Positions 2,443-45,576 of a DNA stretch of 64,000 nucleotides are shown here, one piece after another. Positions within the stretch are counted from its first letter, which is position 1, and each line of letters starts with the position of its first letter. A model generated the notes under the pieces. It made no database searches and was not told the DNA's origin. It saw nothing but the letters and a program-made list of their open reading frames with translations. The position numbers were made by a program, and so were the translations under genes. The stretch lies in the NCBI RefSeq assembly GCF_011045215.1, contig NZ_CP049201.1. One strand, 5' to 3'. The DNA comes from Escherichia coli. GTDB taxonomy: Bacteria; Pseudomonadota; Gammaproteobacteria; Enterobacterales; Enterobacteriaceae.

Positions 2443-3606
2443 GTGGAACAGATTAATTCAAATAAAAAACACTCTAACAGAAGAAAATACTTTTCTTTAT
2501 TGGCGATAGTTTTATTTATTGCGTTTTCAGGTGCTTATGCCTATTGGTCAATGGAATTAGAAGACATGATTAGTACAGATGACGCCTATGTCACGGGGAA
2601 TGCAGATCCAATTTCTGCACAAGTCTCAGGTAGTGTCACTGTCGTTAATCATAAAGATACGAACTACGTTCGACAGGGTGACATTTTAGTTTCACTGGAT
2701 AAAACTGATGCCACTATCGCACTCAATAAAGCTAAAAATAATCTGGCAAATATTGTTCGGCAAACGAATAAACTGTACTTACAGGATAAACAATACAGTG
2801 CCGAAGTCGCTTCAGCACGTATTCAGTATCAACAATCTTTAGAAGATTATAACCGTCGTGTGCCTTTAGCGAAGCAGGGGGTTATTTCAAAAGAAACGCT
2901 GGAGCATACCAAAGATACGTTAATAAGTAGCAAAGCGGCATTGAATGCCGCTATCCAGGCTTATAAAGCGAATAAAGCTTTAGTAATGAACACACCATTA
3001 AACCGTCAGCCACAAGTCGTTGAAGCTGCGGATGCAACCAAAGAAGCCTGGTTGGCGCTTAAACGTACGGATATTAAGAGTCCGGTTACCGGCTATATTG
3101 CCCAGCGAAGTGTTCAGGTCGGCGAAACAGTGAGTCCCGGACAATCGTTAATGGCTGTCGTACCAGCACGTCAAATGTGGGTTAATGCCAACTTTAAAGA
3201 AACACAACTCACGGATGTACGGATTGGTCAATCGGTCAATATTATCAGCGATCTTTATGGTGAGAATGTTGTGTTTCATGGCCGGGTGACAGGGATCAAT
3301 ATGGGAACCGGCAATGCGTTCTCCTTATTACCTGCACAAAATGCGACAGGGAACTGGATCAAAATCGTTCAGCGTGTACCGGTTGAAGTTTCTCTTGATC
3401 CAAAAGAACTCATGGAACACCCCTTGCGCATTGGTTTATCGATGACTGCAACTATTGATACGAAGAACGAAGACATTGCTGAGATGCCTGAGCTGGCTTC
3501 AACCGTGACGTCCATGCCGGCTTATACCAGTAAGGCTTTAGTTATCGATACCAGTCCGATAGAAAAAGAAATTAGCAACATTATTTCGCATAATGGACAA
3601 CTTTAA
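2443..3606 (+). CDS. emrK: Multidrug efflux membrane fusion protein EmrK
   Basis: 387-aa ORF, EmrA-like periplasmic adaptor with N-terminal membrane anchor; 1-bp overlap with emrY. Confidence 0.92.
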   Translation: MEQINSNKKHSNRRKYFSLLAIVLFIAFSGAYAYWSMELEDMISTDDAYVTGNADPISAQVSGSVTVVNHKDTNYVRQGDILVSLDKTDATIALNKAKNNLANIVRQTNKLYLQDKQYSAEVASARIQYQQSLEDYNRRVPLAKQGVISKETLEHTKDTLISSKAALNAAIQAYKANKALVMNTPLNRQPQVVEAADATKEAWLALKRTDIKSPVTGYIAQRSVQVGETVSPGQSLMAVVPARQMWVNANFKETQLTDVRIGQSVNIISDLYGENVVFHGRVTGINMGTGNAFSLLPAQNATGNWIKIVQRVPVEVSLDPKELMEHPLRIGLSMTATIDTKNEDIAEMPELASTVTSMPAYTSKALVIDTSPIEKEISNIISHNGQL

Positions 3607-5144
3607 TGGCAATCACTAAATCAACTCCGGCACCATTAACCGGTGGGACGTTATGGTGCGTCACTATTGCATTGTCATTAGCGACGTTTATGCAAATGTT
3701 GGATTCCACTATTTCTAACGTCGCAATACCGACAATATCTGGCTTTCTGGGAGCATCAACAGACGAAGGCACCTGGGTTATCACCTCGTTTGGCGTAGCA
3801 AATGCCATTGCTATCCCTGTTACCGGCAGGCTGGCACAAAGAATAGGCGAATTAAGGTTATTTTTACTTTCAGTCACTTTTTTTTCGCTGTCTTCCTTAA
3901 TGTGTAGTTTATCGACCAATCTTGATGTGCTGATATTTTTTAGAGTCGTTCAGGGGTTAATGGCAGGGCCGTTAATTCCACTGTCACAGAGTTTATTATT
4001 AAGGAATTATCCACCAGAAAAAAGAACATTTGCTCTGGCATTATGGTCAATGACCGTGATTATCGCTCCGATATGTGGGCCGATATTGGGCGGTTATATT
4101 TGTGATAACTTTAGCTGGGGTTGGATATTTTTAATCAATGTCCCTATGGGGATTATCGTCCTGACATTATGCTTAACCTTACTTAAAGGAAGAGAAACTG
4201 AGACTTCACCGGTCAAAATGAATCTACCAGGACTGACCCTGTTAGTGCTCGGTGTTGGTGGCTTGCAAATTATGCTTGATAAAGGGCGCGATCTGGATTG
4301 GTTCAACTCGAATACAATAATAATATTAACAGTAGTATCAGTTATTTCTCTGATCTCTTTAGTCATTTGGGAGTCGACCTCAGAGAACCCGATTCTTGAT
4401 CTCAGTTTGTTTAAGTCCCGTAATTTCACCATTGGTATTGTGAGTATCACATGCGCGTATTTATTTTACTCTGGAGCGATCGTCCTTATGCCGCAGTTAC
4501 TCCAGGAAACGATGGGGTATAATGCGATATGGGCCGGACTTGCTTATGCGCCCATCGGCATCATGCCACTATTAATTTCACCTTTGATAGGACGTTATGG
4601 CAACAAAATAGACATGCGGGTGTTGGTGACATTCAGTTTTTTGATGTATGCGGTTTGCTATTACTGGCGTTCTGTGACATTTATGCCAACGATTGATTTT
4701 ACAGGTATCATTTTGCCGCAGTTTTTTCAGGGATTCGCCGTTGCCTGTTTCTTTTTACCCTTAACAACGATTTCGTTTTCAGGCTTGCCAGATAATAAAT
4801 TTGCCAATGCCTCGAGTATGAGTAATTTTTTTCGTACCTTGTCAGGATCAGTTGGTACGTCGTTGACAATGACGCTGTGGGGACGACGCGAATCGTTACA
4901 CCATAGTCAGTTGACAGCAACCATCGATCAATTTAACCCCGTGTTTAATTCATCGTCACAAATTATGGATAAATACTATGGTTCGCTTTCAGGAGTTCTT
5001 AATGAAATTAATAATGAAATAACCCAGCAGTCACTTTCTATTTCTGCAAATGAGATTTTCCGTATGGCGGCTATTGCTTTTATCTTACTTACGGTTTTGG
5101 TTTGGTTTGCGAAACCGCCGTTTACAGCGAAAGGCGTTGGGTGA
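3606..5144 (+). CDS. emrY: MFS multidrug efflux pump EmrY
   Basis: 512-aa ORF, 14-TMS MFS (EmrB-like); translationally coupled to emrK. Confidence 0.92.
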   Translation: MAITKSTPAPLTGGTLWCVTIALSLATFMQMLDSTISNVAIPTISGFLGASTDEGTWVITSFGVANAIAIPVTGRLAQRIGELRLFLLSVTFFSLSSLMCSLSTNLDVLIFFRVVQGLMAGPLIPLSQSLLLRNYPPEKRTFALALWSMTVIIAPICGPILGGYICDNFSWGWIFLINVPMGIIVLTLCLTLLKGRETETSPVKMNLPGLTLLVLGVGGLQIMLDKGRDLDWFNSNTIIILTVVSVISLISLVIWESTSENPILDLSLFKSRNFTIGIVSITCAYLFYSGAIVLMPQLLQETMGYNAIWAGLAYAPIGIMPLLISPLIGRYGNKIDMRVLVTFSFLMYAVCYYWRSVTFMPTIDFTGIILPQFFQGFAVACFFLPLTTISFSGLPDNKFANASSMSNFFRTLSGSVGTSLTMTLWGRRESLHHSQLTATIDQFNPVFNSSSQIMDKYYGSLSGVLNEINNEITQQSLSISANEIFRMAAIAFILLTVLVWFAKPPFTAKGVG

Positions 5145-8049: not shown

Positions 8050-9483
8050 TTAACCCAGTTGCCAGAGTGCTCCATGTTGCACCACAGCCACTCCGTGGGA
8101 GGCATAAAGCGACAGTTCCCGTTCTTCTGGCTGCGGATAGATTCGACTACTCATCACCGCTTCCCCGTCGTTAATAAATACTTCCACGGATGATGTATCG
8201 ATAAATATCCTTAGGGCGAGCGTGTCACGCTGCGGGAGGGGAATACTACGGTAGCCGTCTAAATTCTCGTGTGGGTAATACCGCCACAAAACAAGTCGCT
8301 CAGATTGGTTATCAATATACAGCCGCATTCCAGTGCCGAGCTGTAATCCGTAATGTTCGGCATCACTGTTCTTCAGCGCCCACTGCAACTGAATCTCAAC
8401 TGCTTGCGCGTTTTCCTGCAAAACATATTTATTGCTGATTGTGCGGGGAGAGATAGATTGATGCTGCTGGCGTAACGACTCAGCTTCGTGTACCGGGCGT
8501 TGTAGGAGTTTGCCATTGCTCTCTGATAGCTCGCGCGCCAGCGTCATGCAGCCTGCCCAGCCTTCACGTTTTGAGGGCATTGGCGATTCCCACATATCCA
8601 TCCAGCCGATAACAATACGCCGACCATCCTTCGCTACAAAGCTTTGTGGTGCATAAAAGTCATGCCCGTTATCAAGTTCAGTAAAATGCCCGGATTGTGC
8701 AAAAAGTCGTCCTGGCGACCACATTCCGGGTATTACGCCACTTTGAAAGCGATTTCGGTAACTGTATCCCTCGGCATTCATTCCCTGCGGGGAAAACATC
8801 AGATAATGCTGATCGCCAAGGCTGAAAAAGTCCGGACATTCCCACATATAGCTTTCACCCGCATCAGCGTGGGCCAGTACGCGATCGAAAGTCCATTCAC
8901 GTAATGAACTGCCGCGATAAAGCAGGATCTGCCCCGTGTTGCCTGGGTCTTTCGCCCCGACTACCATCCACCATGTGTCGGCTTCACGCCACACTTTAGG
9001 ATCGCGGAAGTGCATGATTCCTTCTGGTGGAGTGAGGATCACACCCTGTTTCTCGAAATGAATACCATCCCGACTGGTAGCCAGACATTGTACTTCGCGA
9101 ATTGCATCGTCATTACCTGCACCATCGAGCCAGACGTGTCCGGTGTAGATAAGTGAGAGGACACCATTGTCATCGACAGCACTACCTGAAAAACACCCGT
9201 CTTTGTCATTATCGTCTCCTGGCGCTAGCGCAATAGGCTCATGCTGCCAGTGGATCATATCGTCGCTGGTGGCATGTCCCCAGTGCATTGGCCCCCAGTG
9301 TTCGCTCATTGGGTGATGTTGATAAAACGCGTGATAACGATCGTTAAACCAGATCAGGCCGTTTGGATCGTTCATCCACCCGGCAGGAGGCGCGAGGTGA
9401 AAATGGGGATAGAAAGTGTTACCCCGGTGCTCATGAAGTTTTGCTAGTGCGTTTTGCGCCGCATGCAATCGAGATTGCGTCAT
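8050..9483 (-). CDS. cscA: Sucrose-6-phosphate hydrolase / invertase CscA (GH32)
   Basis: GH32 N-terminal motif WMNDPNG and overall match to recalled CscA; start taken at MTQSRL (ORF-track start 9492 also possible). Confidence 0.88.
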   Translation of the reverse strand: MTQSRLHAAQNALAKLHEHRGNTFYPHFHLAPPAGWMNDPNGLIWFNDRYHAFYQHHPMSEHWGPMHWGHATSDDMIHWQHEPIALAPGDDNDKDGCFSGSAVDDNGVLSLIYTGHVWLDGAGNDDAIREVQCLATSRDGIHFEKQGVILTPPEGIMHFRDPKVWREADTWWMVVGAKDPGNTGQILLYRGSSLREWTFDRVLAHADAGESYMWECPDFFSLGDQHYLMFSPQGMNAEGYSYRNRFQSGVIPGMWSPGRLFAQSGHFTELDNGHDFYAPQSFVAKDGRRIVIGWMDMWESPMPSKREGWAGCMTLARELSESNGKLLQRPVHEAESLRQQHQSISPRTISNKYVLQENAQAVEIQLQWALKNSDAEHYGLQLGTGMRLYIDNQSERLVLWRYYPHENLDGYRSIPLPQRDTLALRIFIDTSSVEVFINDGEAVMSSRIYPQPEERELSLYASHGVAVVQHGALWQLG

Positions 9484-38918: not shown

Positions 38919-41092
<2,174 letters not shown>

Positions 41093-41321
41093 TACGTATC
41101 CTTATACCTGAAATCTTCGCAAGTATGCCTGGCCGCGAGATTATGGCACACTTGTCCGGTTAACTCTCGTCTCATACAGGTAACACAAACGTGAAAATCC
41201 TTGTTGATGAAAAAAACAAAGATTTAATTTATTGATATAAAAGGATTTGTATCAGCGTATGTCCACGCGGTGACCACATTTTCGAGAGGTAGAGTAAGCC
41301 CGCAACATTGCGGGCTTTGTC

Positions 41322-42113
41322 TTATGGTTCGATCGCCGTTTTGAGACGTTGTGTTGCTACATCAAAATAATGATCACTGGTTTCTATACCAATAAATTTG
41401 CGTCCTGCTTTCAGTGCAGCCACACCCGTTGTCCCTGACCCCATAAAAGGATCAAGGACTGTTCCACCACTATTCGCAGTCCTGACCAGCTCTGCCATAA
41501 GTTCTTCTGGCTTTCCGGTCGGGTGCATTTTCTTTGACGGGATAACCGGGAACGTCATGCAGCCGTCGAACGGACCTGAAGGCGATTTATCTAAATGGCC
41601 TTTGCTGCCCCAGACGATGTATTCACACTGATGCCGGAAATACCCCGTATGGGGTGTTCGTGACCCCCTTCCTTTGTTCCACACAATGATTCCACGCCAT
41701 GTAAAACCGCTGGCCTGAAACGCATCGGTTAAAGCTGGTAGTTGTCGCCAGTCAGTAAATACCAGGGCATAACCGCCCGGTCTGACCGCGCGGTGTGCCT
41801 GTGCCATCCATAATTGTGTCCAGTAAGCCCACGAACGGGCGTCCATGTTTTCACCCGCGAACCCATCAAAGCGGTGAAGGTTCCCGCCGTTCAGATATTT
41901 TGCATGGCTGCCCTGGTTGGTGCGTCCGGCCTTGTGTGTCGCACCCGAACTGTAAGGCGGGTCAGTGATTAAAGCATCAATGCTTTCTGGCTCAATCAGC
42001 GGCAATATTTCCAGCGCATTCCCACGACAGAGCGTGGCATTGTCAGTCTGATAAACCTTAGTGTGTTCCGGTGTATGTGCTGGTTGGTGCTGGATTGCGA
42101 TCCCCACGGTCAT
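41322..42113 (-). CDS. Phage-borne beta-class DNA amino-methyltransferase (N6-adenine or N4-cytosine)
   Basis: 263-aa ORF with DPPY (motif IV) near the N-terminus and FMGSGTT (motif I) near the C-terminus; 5' end overlaps the com-like gene. Confidence 0.8.
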   Translation of the reverse strand: MTVGIAIQHQPAHTPEHTKVYQTDNATLCRGNALEILPLIEPESIDALITDPPYSSGATHKAGRTNQGSHAKYLNGGNLHRFDGFAGENMDARSWAYWTQLWMAQAHRAVRPGGYALVFTDWRQLPALTDAFQASGFTWRGIIVWNKGRGSRTPHTGYFRHQCEYIVWGSKGHLDKSPSGPFDGCMTFPVIPSKKMHPTGKPEELMAELVRTANSGGTVLDPFMGSGTTGVAALKAGRKFIGIETSDHYFDVATQRLKTAIEP

Positions 42114-42255
42114 AACTCCTCATGTGTGTGGGGTGCTCGATGGCTCTCGTTATCTGGTTAAGTGTTTTGCAGCGCGGACATTTTATTTCAATGTAGTGAA
42201 ATGAGGCGCGGGCAAGTAGTTTGTTGCAATTTTTGCATCGTACATTTTGCGTCAT
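42058..42255 (-). CDS. Com-like zinc-finger translational activator (phage Mu Com family)
   Basis: RCKNCNKLL...IEIKCPRCK...EHPT matches the recalled Mu Com C4 zinc finger; AGAGG RBS about 8 nt upstream of ATG 42255; 56-nt overlap with methyltransferase start as com overlaps mom in Mu. Confidence 0.75.
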   Translation of the reverse strand: MTQNVRCKNCNKLLARASFHYIEIKCPRCKTLNQITRAIEHPTHMRSYDRGDRNPAPTSTYTGTH

Positions 42256-42302
42256 TTGCGGCACCTCTTGTGTGGTTACTGCTGCCGATATGATAGCAAA
42301 TC

Positions 42303-42337
42303 GATCGTTTTTATCGATCGGATTTATTGCATCGATC
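42303..42337. promoter_or_regulatory. Cluster of three GATC (Dam) sites upstream of the com-like gene
   Basis: Three copies of ATCGATC(G/T) at 42303, 42316 and 42334 within 35 bp, 48-82 bp upstream of the com start. Confidence 0.4.
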
Positions 42338-42362
42338 TGTTATGTCTATTGCTCATGGATGG

Positions 42363-42402
42363 GGATACCAAAAAGAAAACCCGCAGTTTTTACGCTGCGG
42401 GC
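42363..42402 (-). terminator. Rho-independent terminator downstream of the hok-like ORF
   Basis: Minus strand reads CCCGCAG-CGTAAAAA-CTGCGGG followed by TTTTCTTTTT. Confidence 0.55.
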
Positions 42403-42490
42403 TTGTTGTTCATGTCTGTGAGATAGGGTGCCTTATCGACCTTACCCTGACAACCGATTGACGGGGGATTGCTCCCCCGTCGCGGTTTCC

Positions 42491-42631
42491 TTACTGCTTA
42501 CACTGTAAGAACGCCGCAAACTCCGCTCCCCAGAAGCTCATCCGTATTTCGCATAGCGAACCGTGCAGCATCCAGATGATGAGGATTGCCGTCACGCAGA
42601 ACGTGATGGCCGTAAGCGATTTTTGCGACAT
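42491..42631 (-). CDS. Hok/Gef-family type I toxin-like small membrane protein (46 aa)
   Basis: Manual translation MSQKSLTAITFCVTAILIIWMLHGSLCEIRMSFWGAEFAAFLQCKQ; AAGGAG RBS 8 nt upstream; single TMS then SLCEIR...G.E.AAF motif as in recalled Hok/Gef; not in ORF track (<60 aa). Confidence 0.5.
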   Translation of the reverse strand: MSQKSLTAITFCVTAILIIWMLHGSLCEIRMSFWGAEFAAFLQCKQ

Positions 42632-42821
42632 AGCACTTGCTCCTTTTCCGGAGAGGCGCTAACCTTTCACTTGTCAAGGTAATGCGGTTAGGGCCTCGGT
42701 TAAACAGAGATGTTTTCCGGGGCCTTTCCACATCTGGCCTTCGGGTATTCCCTCCGACCATCAGCCGAAAGGCACCCGCGCGTAATCTATCGCTTTTTTG
42801 TTACTCCGGCAATTCTGCCTG

Positions 42822-43082
42822 TTAATTCTGAGGTAAAGGCAAACTCATCTGATTGTTTCCCCTGTGTGAAGCTGGCAGATCATGCCATGGGATACCTTCT
42901 GATGAGTGAACGCCGGAGGCGTGTTTCGATGTAAATTTATGGAAAGCTTCCAGTGTTGAGAAGCATACGCCGCATTCCAGGTTGTTACACTGGTAATACT
43001 TTTGCCGCACGGTGTTTGAATCATTTTCCGGACGACTGGTGCGGATACGGGCAGATGCGCCACAAAGCGGACAACGGAACAT
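42822..43082 (-). CDS. ogr: Ogr/Delta-family zinc-finger late-gene transcriptional activator
   Basis: MFRCPLCGASARIRTSR...YYQCNNLECGVCFST matches the recalled P2 Ogr C4 zinc finger. Confidence 0.85.
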   Translation of the reverse strand: MFRCPLCGASARIRTSRPENDSNTVRQKYYQCNNLECGVCFSTLEAFHKFTSKHASGVHSSEGIPWHDLPASHRGNNQMSLPLPQN

Positions 43083-43124
43083 AGCGACCTCCCTTAACGT
43101 GGTGCTGTCGCTATTCTAAGTTCC

Positions 43125-44234
43125 TCACTCTGTTTCCGCTATCCATTCCGGGATTTTTGCCTCAAGCTCAAGCTGTGTGGTAAAGCCACTGTTATCAATG
43201 GTGTGCTCGGCTTTTGCAATAATCCAGTCCTGATTATCAATCTCGCTTTTAAATCCTGTTACCGTGCCATGCATTTCGGGGTAGAGTTCTGCGCGTCCGC
43301 GTGCCAGTGTGATGGAGAATGATGCGGCTCCGCGTTGTAGTTGTTGCCACTTTGCCGCCGCTGCGCGTCTTGCTGCCTGCTCGTTCTGATAAGTCTTGCG
43401 TAACACAAACACATTGCCTTCCGCGCCTTCCATATAATCACCTTCACGGCTGCTGCTTTTCTCTTTTTTCGGTTTTGGCGGTTTGCGGCGTTTCACGCTG
43501 ACTTTTTTCTTTTTCCCGTAATTAAGATCAAGCCAGTAAGCGCGTACCCCCGTATACGCCTCGCGGTCAGCAATGCGGAACTGATGGCGATCGCCGCTGC
43601 TGCGTGTGATGGCGAACGAGGGCAACGGCTGGCCCTGTGCGTTCACGCCACCGCCGGGCATGATGAATAACAGATTACCGCTTTTTACCGTGGTGATTGC
43701 GCCCAGCATTTCCGCCATGCGCGTAAGGAAGGACATGTCACTTTCTTCGGTCTGGTCGGCGTGGTCGATTTCGATATCCATCAGCATTTCGCTGATTTGC
43801 GGTTTCAGACCGTACCGATGAGCGATGGCGGATACCACACGCTCAACGGTCACATCATGCCAGGACATCTCACGTTTAACGTTAAATTCATCCCGAAAAT
43901 CTGCGCTTCTGGCTGAAACAGTCAGCCTGTCCGGCGGTCCTTCGTGAGCGATTTCATCAACAATGTAAGTGCCTTTTTCTGTCAGCGGTTCTCCTTTCCA
44001 GCCAATGAGAACCGTCAGGCGCGCGCCCCGTGGCGGTAGCTGCAACTGACCATCCGCATCATCCAGCGTGATGGTGAGCTGGTCCGCCTCAAATCCCCGG
44101 TTGTCGGTCAGTGACAGGCTCATCAGGCGCTCGGCCACGCCTGACAGCGTTTTACCCTCCGCGAGAATATCAAAATCCGGCATTTTCACGGGGTCTGTGC
44201 CCTGACTGAGCAATTGCATGGTGGTATCGGTCAT
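43125..44234 (-). CDS. P2 gpD-like tail protein
   Basis: Start at MTDTTMQLLSQGTDPVKMPDFDILAEGKTLSGVAERLMSL (GGGAGG RBS); matches recalled P2 gpD; ORF-track start 44366 rejected. Confidence 0.85.
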   Translation of the reverse strand: MTDTTMQLLSQGTDPVKMPDFDILAEGKTLSGVAERLMSLSLTDNRGFEADQLTITLDDADGQLQLPPRGARLTVLIGWKGEPLTEKGTYIVDEIAHEGPPDRLTVSARSADFRDEFNVKREMSWHDVTVERVVSAIAHRYGLKPQISEMLMDIEIDHADQTEESDMSFLTRMAEMLGAITTVKSGNLLFIMPGGGVNAQGQPLPSFAITRSSGDRHQFRIADREAYTGVRAYWLDLNYGKKKKVSVKRRKPPKPKKEKSSSREGDYMEGAEGNVFVLRKTYQNEQAARRAAAAKWQQLQRGAASFSITLARGRAELYPEMHGTVTGFKSEIDNQDWIIAKAEHTIDNSGFTTQLELEAKIPEWIAETE

Positions 44235-44391
44235 CTGTTCCCTCCCTGTGCGGCATGGTCGCATGTGCGTGCGGAGGGGGTTACTGCTTTTTGTTGTCGC
44301 CGTGGCGGGAGAACGGCGCAGGGGTGAGATTACGCGCGTGGTGGGTGATGATTGTTGCCGAATCATTTAACGGATACAAGGGGCTGAAGCT

Positions 44392-45576
44392 ATGAGTGAA
44401 ACTCGTTTTCATGGTGCCCGTGTTACGGAAAATACCGACCTGGTAACAGCGATTAACGATGTTGATTCCAGCGTTATCGGTATCGTGGCAACGGCGGATG
44501 ATGCGGACGCGAAGCTGTTCCCGCTGAACAAGCCCACACTGCTGACCCGCGTCAATGACGTGCTGGGAAAATGCGGGACAACGGGGACGCTTTATCGTGC
44601 GCTTAAGGCCATCGCAGACCAGGTGAGCACAAAGGTGATCGTCGTTCGCGTGGCTGAACACAAAGAAGAAGACGGAAAAACGCAGGATCAACTGGTTATC
44701 GGTGGTTCTGAATCTGACGGCAGCTATACGGGGATGTATGCGCTGCTTGTTGCAGAGCAGGATGAAAGCATCGGATACCGTCCGCGTATTCTGGCCGCGC
44801 CGGAGCTGGACACGGAGGCGGTAACAAAATCCCTGTGCGTGATTGCGGGTAAACTGCGCGCGTTTGTGTATGCCTCATGTCACGGCTGTAACACGATGGC
44901 TGAGGCGATTACCTACCGCCAGAAATTCAACGAACGTGAGGTGATGCTCTTATGGCCGGACTTCATCGCCTACAACCCGAAAAGTGGCAAAAACGAAACG
45001 TTCCCCGCGCCTGCCTATGCGTGCGGCCTTCGTGCGTACATTGACCATGAGCAGGGATGGCACAAATCACTGTCCAACGTTCCGGTTAAAAATGTGCTGG
45101 GGATGTCGAGGCATGTGTTCTGGTCGTTGCAGGCCGAAGACAGCGATGCCAACAGCCTCAACAACAAAGAAATCACGACCATTATTCGTCGCAACGGGTT
45201 CCGCTTCTGGGGCAACCGCACACCGGAAACGAACGCCTACATCTTTGAGGTGTATACCCGAACCGCACAGGTGCTGGCTGATTCAATTGCGGAAGCGCAG
45301 TTTGAAACCATCGACAGTCCACTGACGCCTGCGAACGTGAAGGATGTTATCAGTGCCATCAGGGCAAAACTGGATTCACTGGTTACTGCCGGGAAACTGA
45401 TTGGCGCGGAGTGCTGGTATGACGTGGTGGATAACAGCACCACGGATTTACGTCAGGGGCGTGTGCGTATTCGCTACAAATATACGCCTGTTCCCCCGCT
45501 GGAAGACATGGAGCTTTACCAGACGTTTACTGATGAATACTTTGAACCCGCATTTGCGGTGCTGGGAGGTGCCTGA
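44392..45576 (+). CDS. Contractile tail sheath protein (P2 gpFI-like)
   Basis: 394-aa ORF; matches recalled gpFI (e.g. RTAQVLADSIAEAQ, YKYTPVPPLE). Confidence 0.9.
   Translation: MSETRFHGARVTENTDLVTAINDVDSSVIGIVATADDADAKLFPLNKPTLLTRVNDVLGKCGTTGTLYRALKAIADQVSTKVIVVRVAEHKEEDGKTQDQLVIGGSESDGSYTGMYALLVAEQDESIGYRPRILAAPELDTEAVTKSLCVIAGKLRAFVYASCHGCNTMAEAITYRQKFNEREVMLLWPDFIAYNPKSGKNETFPAPAYACGLRAYIDHEQGWHKSLSNVPVKNVLGMSRHVFWSLQAEDSDANSLNNKEITTIIRRNGFRFWGNRTPETNAYIFEVYTRTAQVLADSIAEAQFETIDSPLTPANVKDVISAIRAKLDSLVTAGKLIGAECWYDVVDNSTTDLRQGRVRIRYKYTPVPPLEDMELYQTFTDEYFEPAFAVLGGA

Follow-up and report, generated by a model that had tools for sequence, protein, structure and literature searches.

Does a prophage methyltransferase gene that lies behind a com gene share the control circuit of the mom gene of phage Mu? 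The question is raised by a 64-kb stretch of Escherichia coli DNA (contig NZ_CP049201.1), referred to here as the window, in which com overlaps the 5' end of a DNA methyltransferase gene. All the features of this locus are on the minus strand, and E. coli strain KSC9 matched the window at 100% over the com-methyltransferase locus. The original prediction had proposed that two layers of control, by host Dam methylation and by translational activation through Com, are reused here. We consider it likely that the locus is a descendant or recombinant of the Mu mom regulatory module, fused to a beta-class, probably N6-adenine, methyltransferase in an optional cassette of a P2-like prophage and subject to two-layer control. 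As far as sequence can tell, the elements of such control are all present, in the arrangement of Mu and with conservation among relatives, and purifying selection acts on the methyltransferase; the Com motif, the start-codon hairpin and a GATC triple in register with that of Mu all speak for the proposed two layers. From these elements we infer that OxyR and Com bind, which way they regulate, when the genes are expressed and what the enzyme methylates. The features that carry the argument are the following:

42058..42255, minus strand: com, ATG start, 65 aa (MTQNVRCKNCNKLL...IEIKCPRCK), C4 zinc ribbon, AGAGG Shine-Dalgarno sequence upstream.
41322..42113, minus strand: beta-class DNA amino-methyltransferase, 263 aa from ATG 42113, or 261 aa from the likely start GTG 42107.
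42132..42148, minus strand: putative Com RNA-binding site, GAGAGCCATCGAGCACC (GAGAGCC-AUC-GAGCACC), a match to the bipartite motif obtained by systematic evolution of ligands by exponential enrichment (SELEX).
42102..42133, minus strand: predicted translation-inhibition hairpin, CCCCAC (42133-42128) pairing with GUGGGG (42107-42102), 20 nt between the arms.
42304..42349, minus strand: putative OxyR operator with three Dam sites, in two overlapping 37-bp registers (42349-42313 and 42340-42304).
42290..42317, minus strand: predicted sigma-70 promoter, -35 TCGATA (42317-42312), 16-bp spacer, extended -10 TGcTATCAT (42298-42290).

The small protein matched Zn_ribbon_Com of Pfam (PF10122, E 1.3e-11) and phrog_13819, 'gpCom control of modification' (E 2e-17), so that the Com-type C4 zinc finger that had been recognized by eye was confirmed at the family level. 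Over 42 aa of the zinc ribbon it shared 60% identity with Mu Com, with all four cysteines aligned. The exact 65-aa sequence was found on at least 998 contigs, where it is named 'Com family', and RefSeq names both genes of the locus. No terminator-like site was detected by the terminator scan between com and the methyltransferase gene, which overlap.

The overlapped gene encodes an enzyme in which DPPY (near residue 52) precedes FMGSGTT (near residue 222), which is the beta-class motif order; the protein matched PF01555 in two segments (E 1e-19 and 5e-11) and phrog_67 (E 1e-81), in agreement with the class first assigned from its motifs. The nearest solved structures were a Helicobacter pylori adenine methyltransferase (deposited as DpnA) and CcrM (E 1e-20). 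The match to PF02086, the D12 class, was limited to E 0.93 over 37 residues, which does not place the enzyme in the D12 fold, and it did not group with Mom either, falling in the N6_N4 class when cargo proteins were classified by BLASTP against three references. DPPY favours N6-adenine, and the enzyme probably acts on this base. The ratio of nonsynonymous to synonymous substitution rates (dN/dS) against relatives was 0.10-0.14, indicating purifying selection.

The true start of the enzyme is more likely GTG 42107 than ATG 42113, because the GTG is conserved (in 80/80 related loci and in Mu), an AGGAG sequence lies 8 nt upstream of it, and one relative, L029, has no ATG at the methyltransferase start; some database entries already use the GTG. 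The overlap with com, given as 56 nt in the original prediction, has that length if the ATG is used, and shortens to 50 nt with the likelier GTG. For annotation, this gives the rule that the cargo begins at the conserved GUG within the hairpin, not at the upstream ATG.

The RNA target of Com determined by SELEX is NGAGNNCC(N)2-3GAGNNCC, with an essential core CC(N)2-3GAG (Nowacka et al. 2019, PMC6483171). This bipartite motif occurs a single time on both strands of the 64 kb, with 0.1 occurrences expected by chance per window, and the occurrence is directly 5' of the start-codon hairpin, placed as in Mu. Within the site, the CC-AUC-GAG core can be fitted to a short hairpin with a GAGC/GCAC stem and one A-A mismatch, which is not the predicted minimum-energy fold. 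In the larger hairpin, the GUG start forms part of the 3' arm, an inner helix (CAUGA/UUAUG) pairs the AUG, and the AGGAG Shine-Dalgarno sequence (42120-42116) is mostly in the loop, its first A closing the inner helix. The predicted free energy was -13.2 kcal/mol, with a z-score of -2.8 for the 63-nt context; by minimum-energy fold and partition function the GUG had a probability of 0.00 of being unpaired, and the AUG was also paired. The start-occluding structure that had been anticipated was thus recovered for both candidate starts. Mu has the same layout, with the Com RNA site 5' of the hairpin, GGAG within or bordering the loop, GUG in the 3' arm and CGAGCAyCCCAC shared with the window; its hairpin, CCCAC-GGAGAAACAUU-GUGGG, has -6.8 kcal/mol, so that the one in the window is about twice as stable and has the extra inner helix. 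Rfam returned no family match for the com/hairpin region, with only a sub-threshold sok match upstream.

To follow these elements among relatives, 80 related loci were fetched via Com similarity, from 100% to 52% identity. CCCAC...GTGGG was present in all 80 and in Mu, while the loop between the arms was fully diverged; the minimal Com motif was also found in 80/80 loci, and the full bipartite motif in 64/80. Two distant loci, probably of Neisseria type and with a C5-cytosine methyltransferase as cargo (L089 and L090), keep a Com site (GAAUGCC-NNN-GAGCAUCC) and pair the start codon with a different stem, GCAUCC/AUGGAUGC, which argues that a mechanism has been conserved and not only inherited letters. 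In these two loci it is the second half of the Com site that builds the start-codon hairpin (GCAUCC/AUGGAUGC), and com is followed by tandem methyltransferase genes, C5 (PF00145) and then D12 (PF02086).

The RefSeq name of the com product, 'Com family DNA-binding transcriptional regulator', is doubtful for an RNA-binding protein. Taken literally it would make Com a transcription factor that acts here on DNA rather than RNA, which we hold to be extremely improbable: Mu-type Com binds RNA, with a target motif established by SELEX and footprinting (PMC6483171), the locus contains the RNA motif and the start-codon hairpin, both of them conserved, and apart from the GATC operator no repeated DNA site was seen. 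By homology to the experimentally studied Mu system, the com-methyltransferase mRNA would instead fold the GUG/AUG start into the stable hairpin, Com produced from that transcript would bind GAGAGCC-AUC-GAGCACC 5' of the hairpin and open it, and the methyltransferase would be made only once Com accumulates. The likely job of the enzyme would be to modify phage DNA against host restriction.

A second layer is suggested by the DNA upstream of com. The three ATCGATC repeats that had been noticed there start at 42300, 42313 and 42331 (plus-strand numbering) and span 38 bp, slightly more than the 35 bp first given; the G's of the minus-strand GATC sites are at 42337, 42319 and 42306, at spacings of 18 and 13 bp. 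Against ATAGNTNNNANCTAT-N7-ATAGNTNNNANCTAT, the putative OxyR operator containing them scored 15/20, the top of 128,000 positions on both strands, compared with 13 for Mu mom and 14 for agn43. Its proximal pair, GATCGATAAAAACGATC, has the form GATC-N9-GATC, a half-site form for OxyR that experiments on gtr and agn43 have validated. In Mu (L002), three GATC sites at 660, 678 and 691, spaced 18 and 13 bp, likewise lie in an OxyR-like site; through the operator, Mu, the window and other cassettes align in register.

The count of GATC sites is weak evidence when taken alone, because two other triple clusters of the window lie in coding DNA (9339-9366 in a cscA-like gene, and 32500-32582 in aroC); the window holds 220 GATC, from which about 2 triples are expected (Poisson). 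The cluster at 32500-32582 packs six GATC into 83 bp within the 3' end of aroC, more densely than the com operator does, and lies directly upstream of an open reading frame (ORF) taken as mepA. At the com operator, three of the seven ATCGATC 7-mers of the window fall within 38 bp; together with a spacing identical to that of Mu, the top OxyR score and retention in relatives, this repetition places the candidate operator beyond chance.

Conservation was strongest among the loci with the same type of cargo: 23 of 27 related methyltransferase-type loci keep all three GATC sites, so that the cluster is a regular feature of related prophages, a point on which the original prediction had been open to refutation. 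The divergent L029, with Com 71% and the methyltransferase 74% identical, keeps three sites at 18 and 13 bp and an OxyR score of 15/20, despite changes in the bases that separate the sites.

The predicted sigma-70 promoter was the only promoter-like match on the minus strand in 41200-43200, with a predicted transcription start near 42283. All methyltransferase-type relatives retain its TATCAT -10, even the ones that lack the GATC sites. The second GATC site is within the -35 and the third within the spacer; since operator and promoter overlap, OxyR binding would occlude the promoter directly, as in the gtr OFF state. In the first layer of the proposed control, unmethylated GATC sites would therefore let OxyR bind and occlude the extended -10 promoter, and Dam methylation would block OxyR binding.

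In this part the locus also departs from Mu. A segment of about 40 bp between the operator and the com Shine-Dalgarno sequence of Mu, which we take to be the C-activated promoter (-10 TAAGAT, T6 run), has no counterpart in the window, where a sigma-70 extended -10 promoter, rather than a C-dependent one, lies directly under the operator. With the C-promoter segment missing and the operator overlapping the promoter, the timing of expression may differ from that in Mu. An Ogr-dependent late promoter was considered and found no support, as the near-match TGA-N12-ACA at 42355-42338 is not conserved (TAA in L003 and L010). The P2 consensus TGT-N12-ACA occurs 2 times in 41-64 kb, with about 5.6 occurrences expected by chance, and one copy is inside com; being rarer than chance and present within com, the P2 late-promoter motif is unusable for the phage of the window. 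When the com promoter was compared with other intergenic regions of the prophage, a single motif was shared, the 10-mer AGCAGTAACC, found on the minus strand in the com 5' leader (42283-42274) and in the region upstream of the tail gene D (about 44285-44276; p ~0.04); it may be due to chance, or represent a shared leader or promoter element.

Several of these observations weigh against Mu-type control of the locus. The absence of the Mu segment described above is one, and no Ogr-type activator site was found; the promoter might simply be on in a dam+ lysogen. OxyR and Com are placed at the locus by their motifs. The 6-bp stem of the hairpin is invariant in all 82 sequences (the 80 loci, the window and Mu), and covariation can thus neither support nor refute the hairpin; the overlap of two reading frames could account for part of the conservation of the stem. 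In L026-L028 (IMG/VR contigs), a deletion between GATCGAT repeats, about 60 bp upstream of com, has removed the whole GATC operator, leaving the TGtTATCAT -10, com and the methyltransferase intact, and L010 has lost the middle GATC site with its genes intact; this makes the Dam layer dispensable. The loci with Mom or C5-cytosine methyltransferase cargo, moreover, keep only two of the three sites. These losses, together with the fact that GATC triples as such are not rare in the window, favour the view that the GATC cluster is a vestige, inherited but no longer regulatory, and that only the Com/hairpin layer, or neither layer, matters. The retention of all three sites in 23 of the 27 methyltransferase-type loci speaks against it, as does L029, in which spacing and score persisted through changes in the intervening bases, and we judge a vestige to be quite unlikely.

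The overlap of operator and promoter bears on a further alternative, in which the same parts would form an epigenetic ON/OFF switch in lysogens, like those of agn43 and gtr, instead of a late lytic function, with Dam and OxyR competing after each replication and giving rise to heritable lineages. The resemblance is close: agn43 of E. coli has three GATC sites at 19 and 13 bp in one OxyR site, near the 18 and 13 bp of the window, and in gtr (P22/Salmonella) an OxyR site overlaps the promoter, producing the OFF state, with GATC sites 13 bp apart in ATCG...CGAT half-sites, as in agn43. In the window, the operator covers the -35 and spacer of an extended -10 promoter for which no activator site was found, and a promoter of its own between two terminator-like hairpins is the classical layout of a lysogen-expressed moron. 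Unlike the com-methyltransferase operon, known from sequence, agn43 and gtr control surface structures and are proven to be phase-variable; the retained Com/hairpin gate suggests tight expression, and other E. coli prophage methyltransferases have been found silent in lysogens (PMC5778455; PMC4659465). Phase variation of Mu mom is itself called an unsettled matter in the literature, and our literature search returned nothing specific on the methylome or the specificity of the window's enzyme, nor on undermethylated GATC at such loci. Such a switch is possible, if rather unlikely. A related and still somewhat less probable proposal is that of a Dam/OxyR-driven prophage 'phasevarion', in which an orphan methyltransferase would be heritably on or off in lysogens and Com would sharpen the response.

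Descent from the Mu module, which remains the preferred reading, makes a statement about the regulator apart from its cargo. For the 80 loci, the window and Mu, cargo proteins were obtained by translation starting at the conserved GUG, and comprised 45 Mom proteins, 28 members of the window's methyltransferase family and 9 C5-cytosine methyltransferases; the C5 cargo was confirmed by TIGR00675 above cut-off, and the Mom cargo by phrog_1384. The C5 enzymes (L039, L048, L052 and L060-L066, IMG/VR contigs) have 350 aa, are encoded at about 2655-3707 and start GUG GGG AAC like the Mom versions. No earlier description of a com cassette with a C5-cytosine methyltransferase in enterobacterial phages was found. 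Between Mom locus L030 and C5 locus L039, identity was 85-100% over positions of about -250 to +10, counted from the GUG, and at the random level beyond, and the pair L059/L060 gave the same pattern, with identity beginning at about -170; the alignments place the swap point about 10 nt after the GUG start. In wider taxa, com is followed by genes for D12-class methyltransferases or for tandems of C5 and D12 enzymes.

Because three unrelated cargos have the GATC pair and the cassette in common, the operator belongs to the regulator and not to the cargo. Less striking than the phasevarion, but better supported, is the interpretation of a portable cassette, comprising operator, promoter, com, hairpin and the GUG plus three codons, recombined onto three unrelated DNA-modifying enzymes. 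This bears on the proposal that the ATCGATC repeats are the methyltransferase's own target (e.g., ATCGAT or GATC), through which it would autoregulate its promoter. The repeats do lie in the promoter, and some database entries label members of the cluster 'DpnIIB', after a GATC methylase; the label rests on weak family similarity, and the same GATC pair is found upstream of Mom and C5 cargos, and in Mu. The presence of the same operator on these cargos led us to reject the enzyme's own target as the source of the repeats, which we rate as very improbable.

The combination of Com with a methyltransferase is not new in kind. It has already been published for FluMu, Pnm1, Hia5, B3 and KS5, and the locus itself is already annotated. 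A Com homologue directly upstream of a DNA methyltransferase in the mom position was reported for FluMu (HI1522.1/Hin1523), Pnm1 (Nma1821), Haemophilus aegyptius (ComHia/Hia5) and Pseudomonas phage B3 (ORF47/48), together with a proposal of Com-type control and with silence in the lysogen (PMC3299994). Those enzymes were aligned with Dam and M1.DpnII and are nearly non-specific (PMC3299994). The enzyme of the window differs from them in being of the beta class (PF01555). By standard classification, Dam and M1.DpnII belong to the alpha class, D12. The distant D12- and C5-cargo Com loci that were examined here, a set distinct from FluMu, Pnm1, Hia5 and B3, had no GATC operator. M.EcoGII, a non-specific beta-class methyltransferase, was compared by length only (349 aa versus 261 aa for the window's enzyme).

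The closest published case is the P2-like Burkholderia phage KS5, whose gp21, 'Com translational regulator', overlaps gp20, an N-4/N-6 DNA methylase (PMC3091744). As in the window, com overlaps a PF01555 methyltransferase in a P2-like phage, and gp20 is 42% identical to the window's enzyme (E 1e-59); unlike in the window, the pair lies between the tail fibre and sheath genes, the hairpin sequence differs and the com upstream region has no GATC. In the KS5-related Burkholderia phage vB_SBP21, an enzyme with 42% identity occurs in the absence of com, so that the idea of com as a constant companion of this methyltransferase family was dropped. The original prediction of a methyltransferase in place of Mom was accordingly right as to the cargo, which is of the N6_N4 class and not Mom, and less novel than it seemed, the idea having been published for several phages. 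No description was found in the literature of Mu's Dam/OxyR operator retained in register in enterobacterial P2-like cassettes, of a Mu-type operator fused directly to a sigma-70 promoter without the C-dependent segment, or of a sharp cargo breakpoint.

Also unlike Mu, a transposable phage, the element that carries the locus is a P2-like prophage. Along the minus strand, the order of the features is ogr-like gene, hok-like gene, terminator, 120-bp regulatory region, com, methyltransferase and terminator-like hairpin. The features surrounding the com-methyltransferase pair are:

40097..41092: flk, a host gene; the P2-like prophage begins just past its end.
41296..41317, minus strand: hairpin right after the methyltransferase stop, 9-bp stem with 6 G-C pairs; right cassette boundary, on the flk side.
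42377..42404, minus strand: intrinsic terminator, 10-bp stem and T run, from the terminator scan; it ends the upstream hok-like transcript and is the left cassette boundary.
42631..42491, minus strand: hok-like toxin ORF, 46 aa, matching phrog_251, 'MokW-like host killing' (E 1e-22).
43082..42822, minus strand: ogr-like zinc-finger gene.

The cassette had been described as lying next to ogr; the ogr-like gene is indeed nearby (42822..43082), with the hok-like gene and a terminator in between. The hairpin at 41296..41317 was called by the scan on the plus strand, with a T-rich tail, and its minus-strand tail is not T-rich; judging from its position alone, it would serve as the terminator of the methyltransferase transcript. 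A prophage of E. coli F1022 (L085, 1500-1720) has hok and both hairpins, about 32 bp apart, without com or the methyltransferase, and because it occupies the same attachment site, the unit of about 1.04 kb is a discrete optional cassette. We regard the region 42404-41296 (minus strand) as a self-contained 'moron' at the attachment-site end of a P2-like (P88/Xuanwuvirus-type) E. coli prophage, as part of the best explanation of the locus. The cassette was found in 170 of 5,426 complete E. coli genomes (about 3%), and phage Chuche carries it at 97% identity, with genes annotated 'gpCom control of modification' and 'DNA methyltransferase'.

Accessory gene content at this end of the prophage varies, with at least three states: hok only (L085), hok with com-methyltransferase (the window), and hok with a TM2-domain gene and com-methyltransferase (L094, E. 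coli 504838, 426-722). In L094 the methyltransferase end of the cassette adjoins raiA. An Rfam sok match overlapping the hok-like ORF (42491-42777, minus strand) was below threshold (48.4 bits versus a gathering cut-off of 59; E 3e-9), and this segment resembles a toxin-antitoxin module of the hok/sok type, placed between ogr and com as a second accessory unit. Further into the prophage (window 43125-45576), the minus strand carries gene D and ogr and the tail sheath operon is divergent, starting at 44392 on the plus strand, an arrangement that is the same in phage Chuche and that differs from the P2 gene order.

The Mu mom control circuit, then, is not peculiar to Mu. It appears as a mobile regulatory cassette, through which enterobacterial P2-like prophages attach Mom, an amino-methyltransferase or a C5-cytosine methyltransferase, and it may help to explain prophage methyltransferases that look silent in methylome surveys. 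Among the loci, some have and some lack the GATC operator, and likewise the C-dependent segment of Mu; comparing these natural variants could address the purpose of the Dam/OxyR layer, the GATC-less L026-L028 being a ready-made control for that layer. Promoter activity in lysogens, should it occur, could make the cassette a source of methylation heterogeneity; and if the phasevarion reading were true, E. coli carriers would split into lineages differing in genome-wide methylation, by means of Dam and OxyR and not of repeat slippage.

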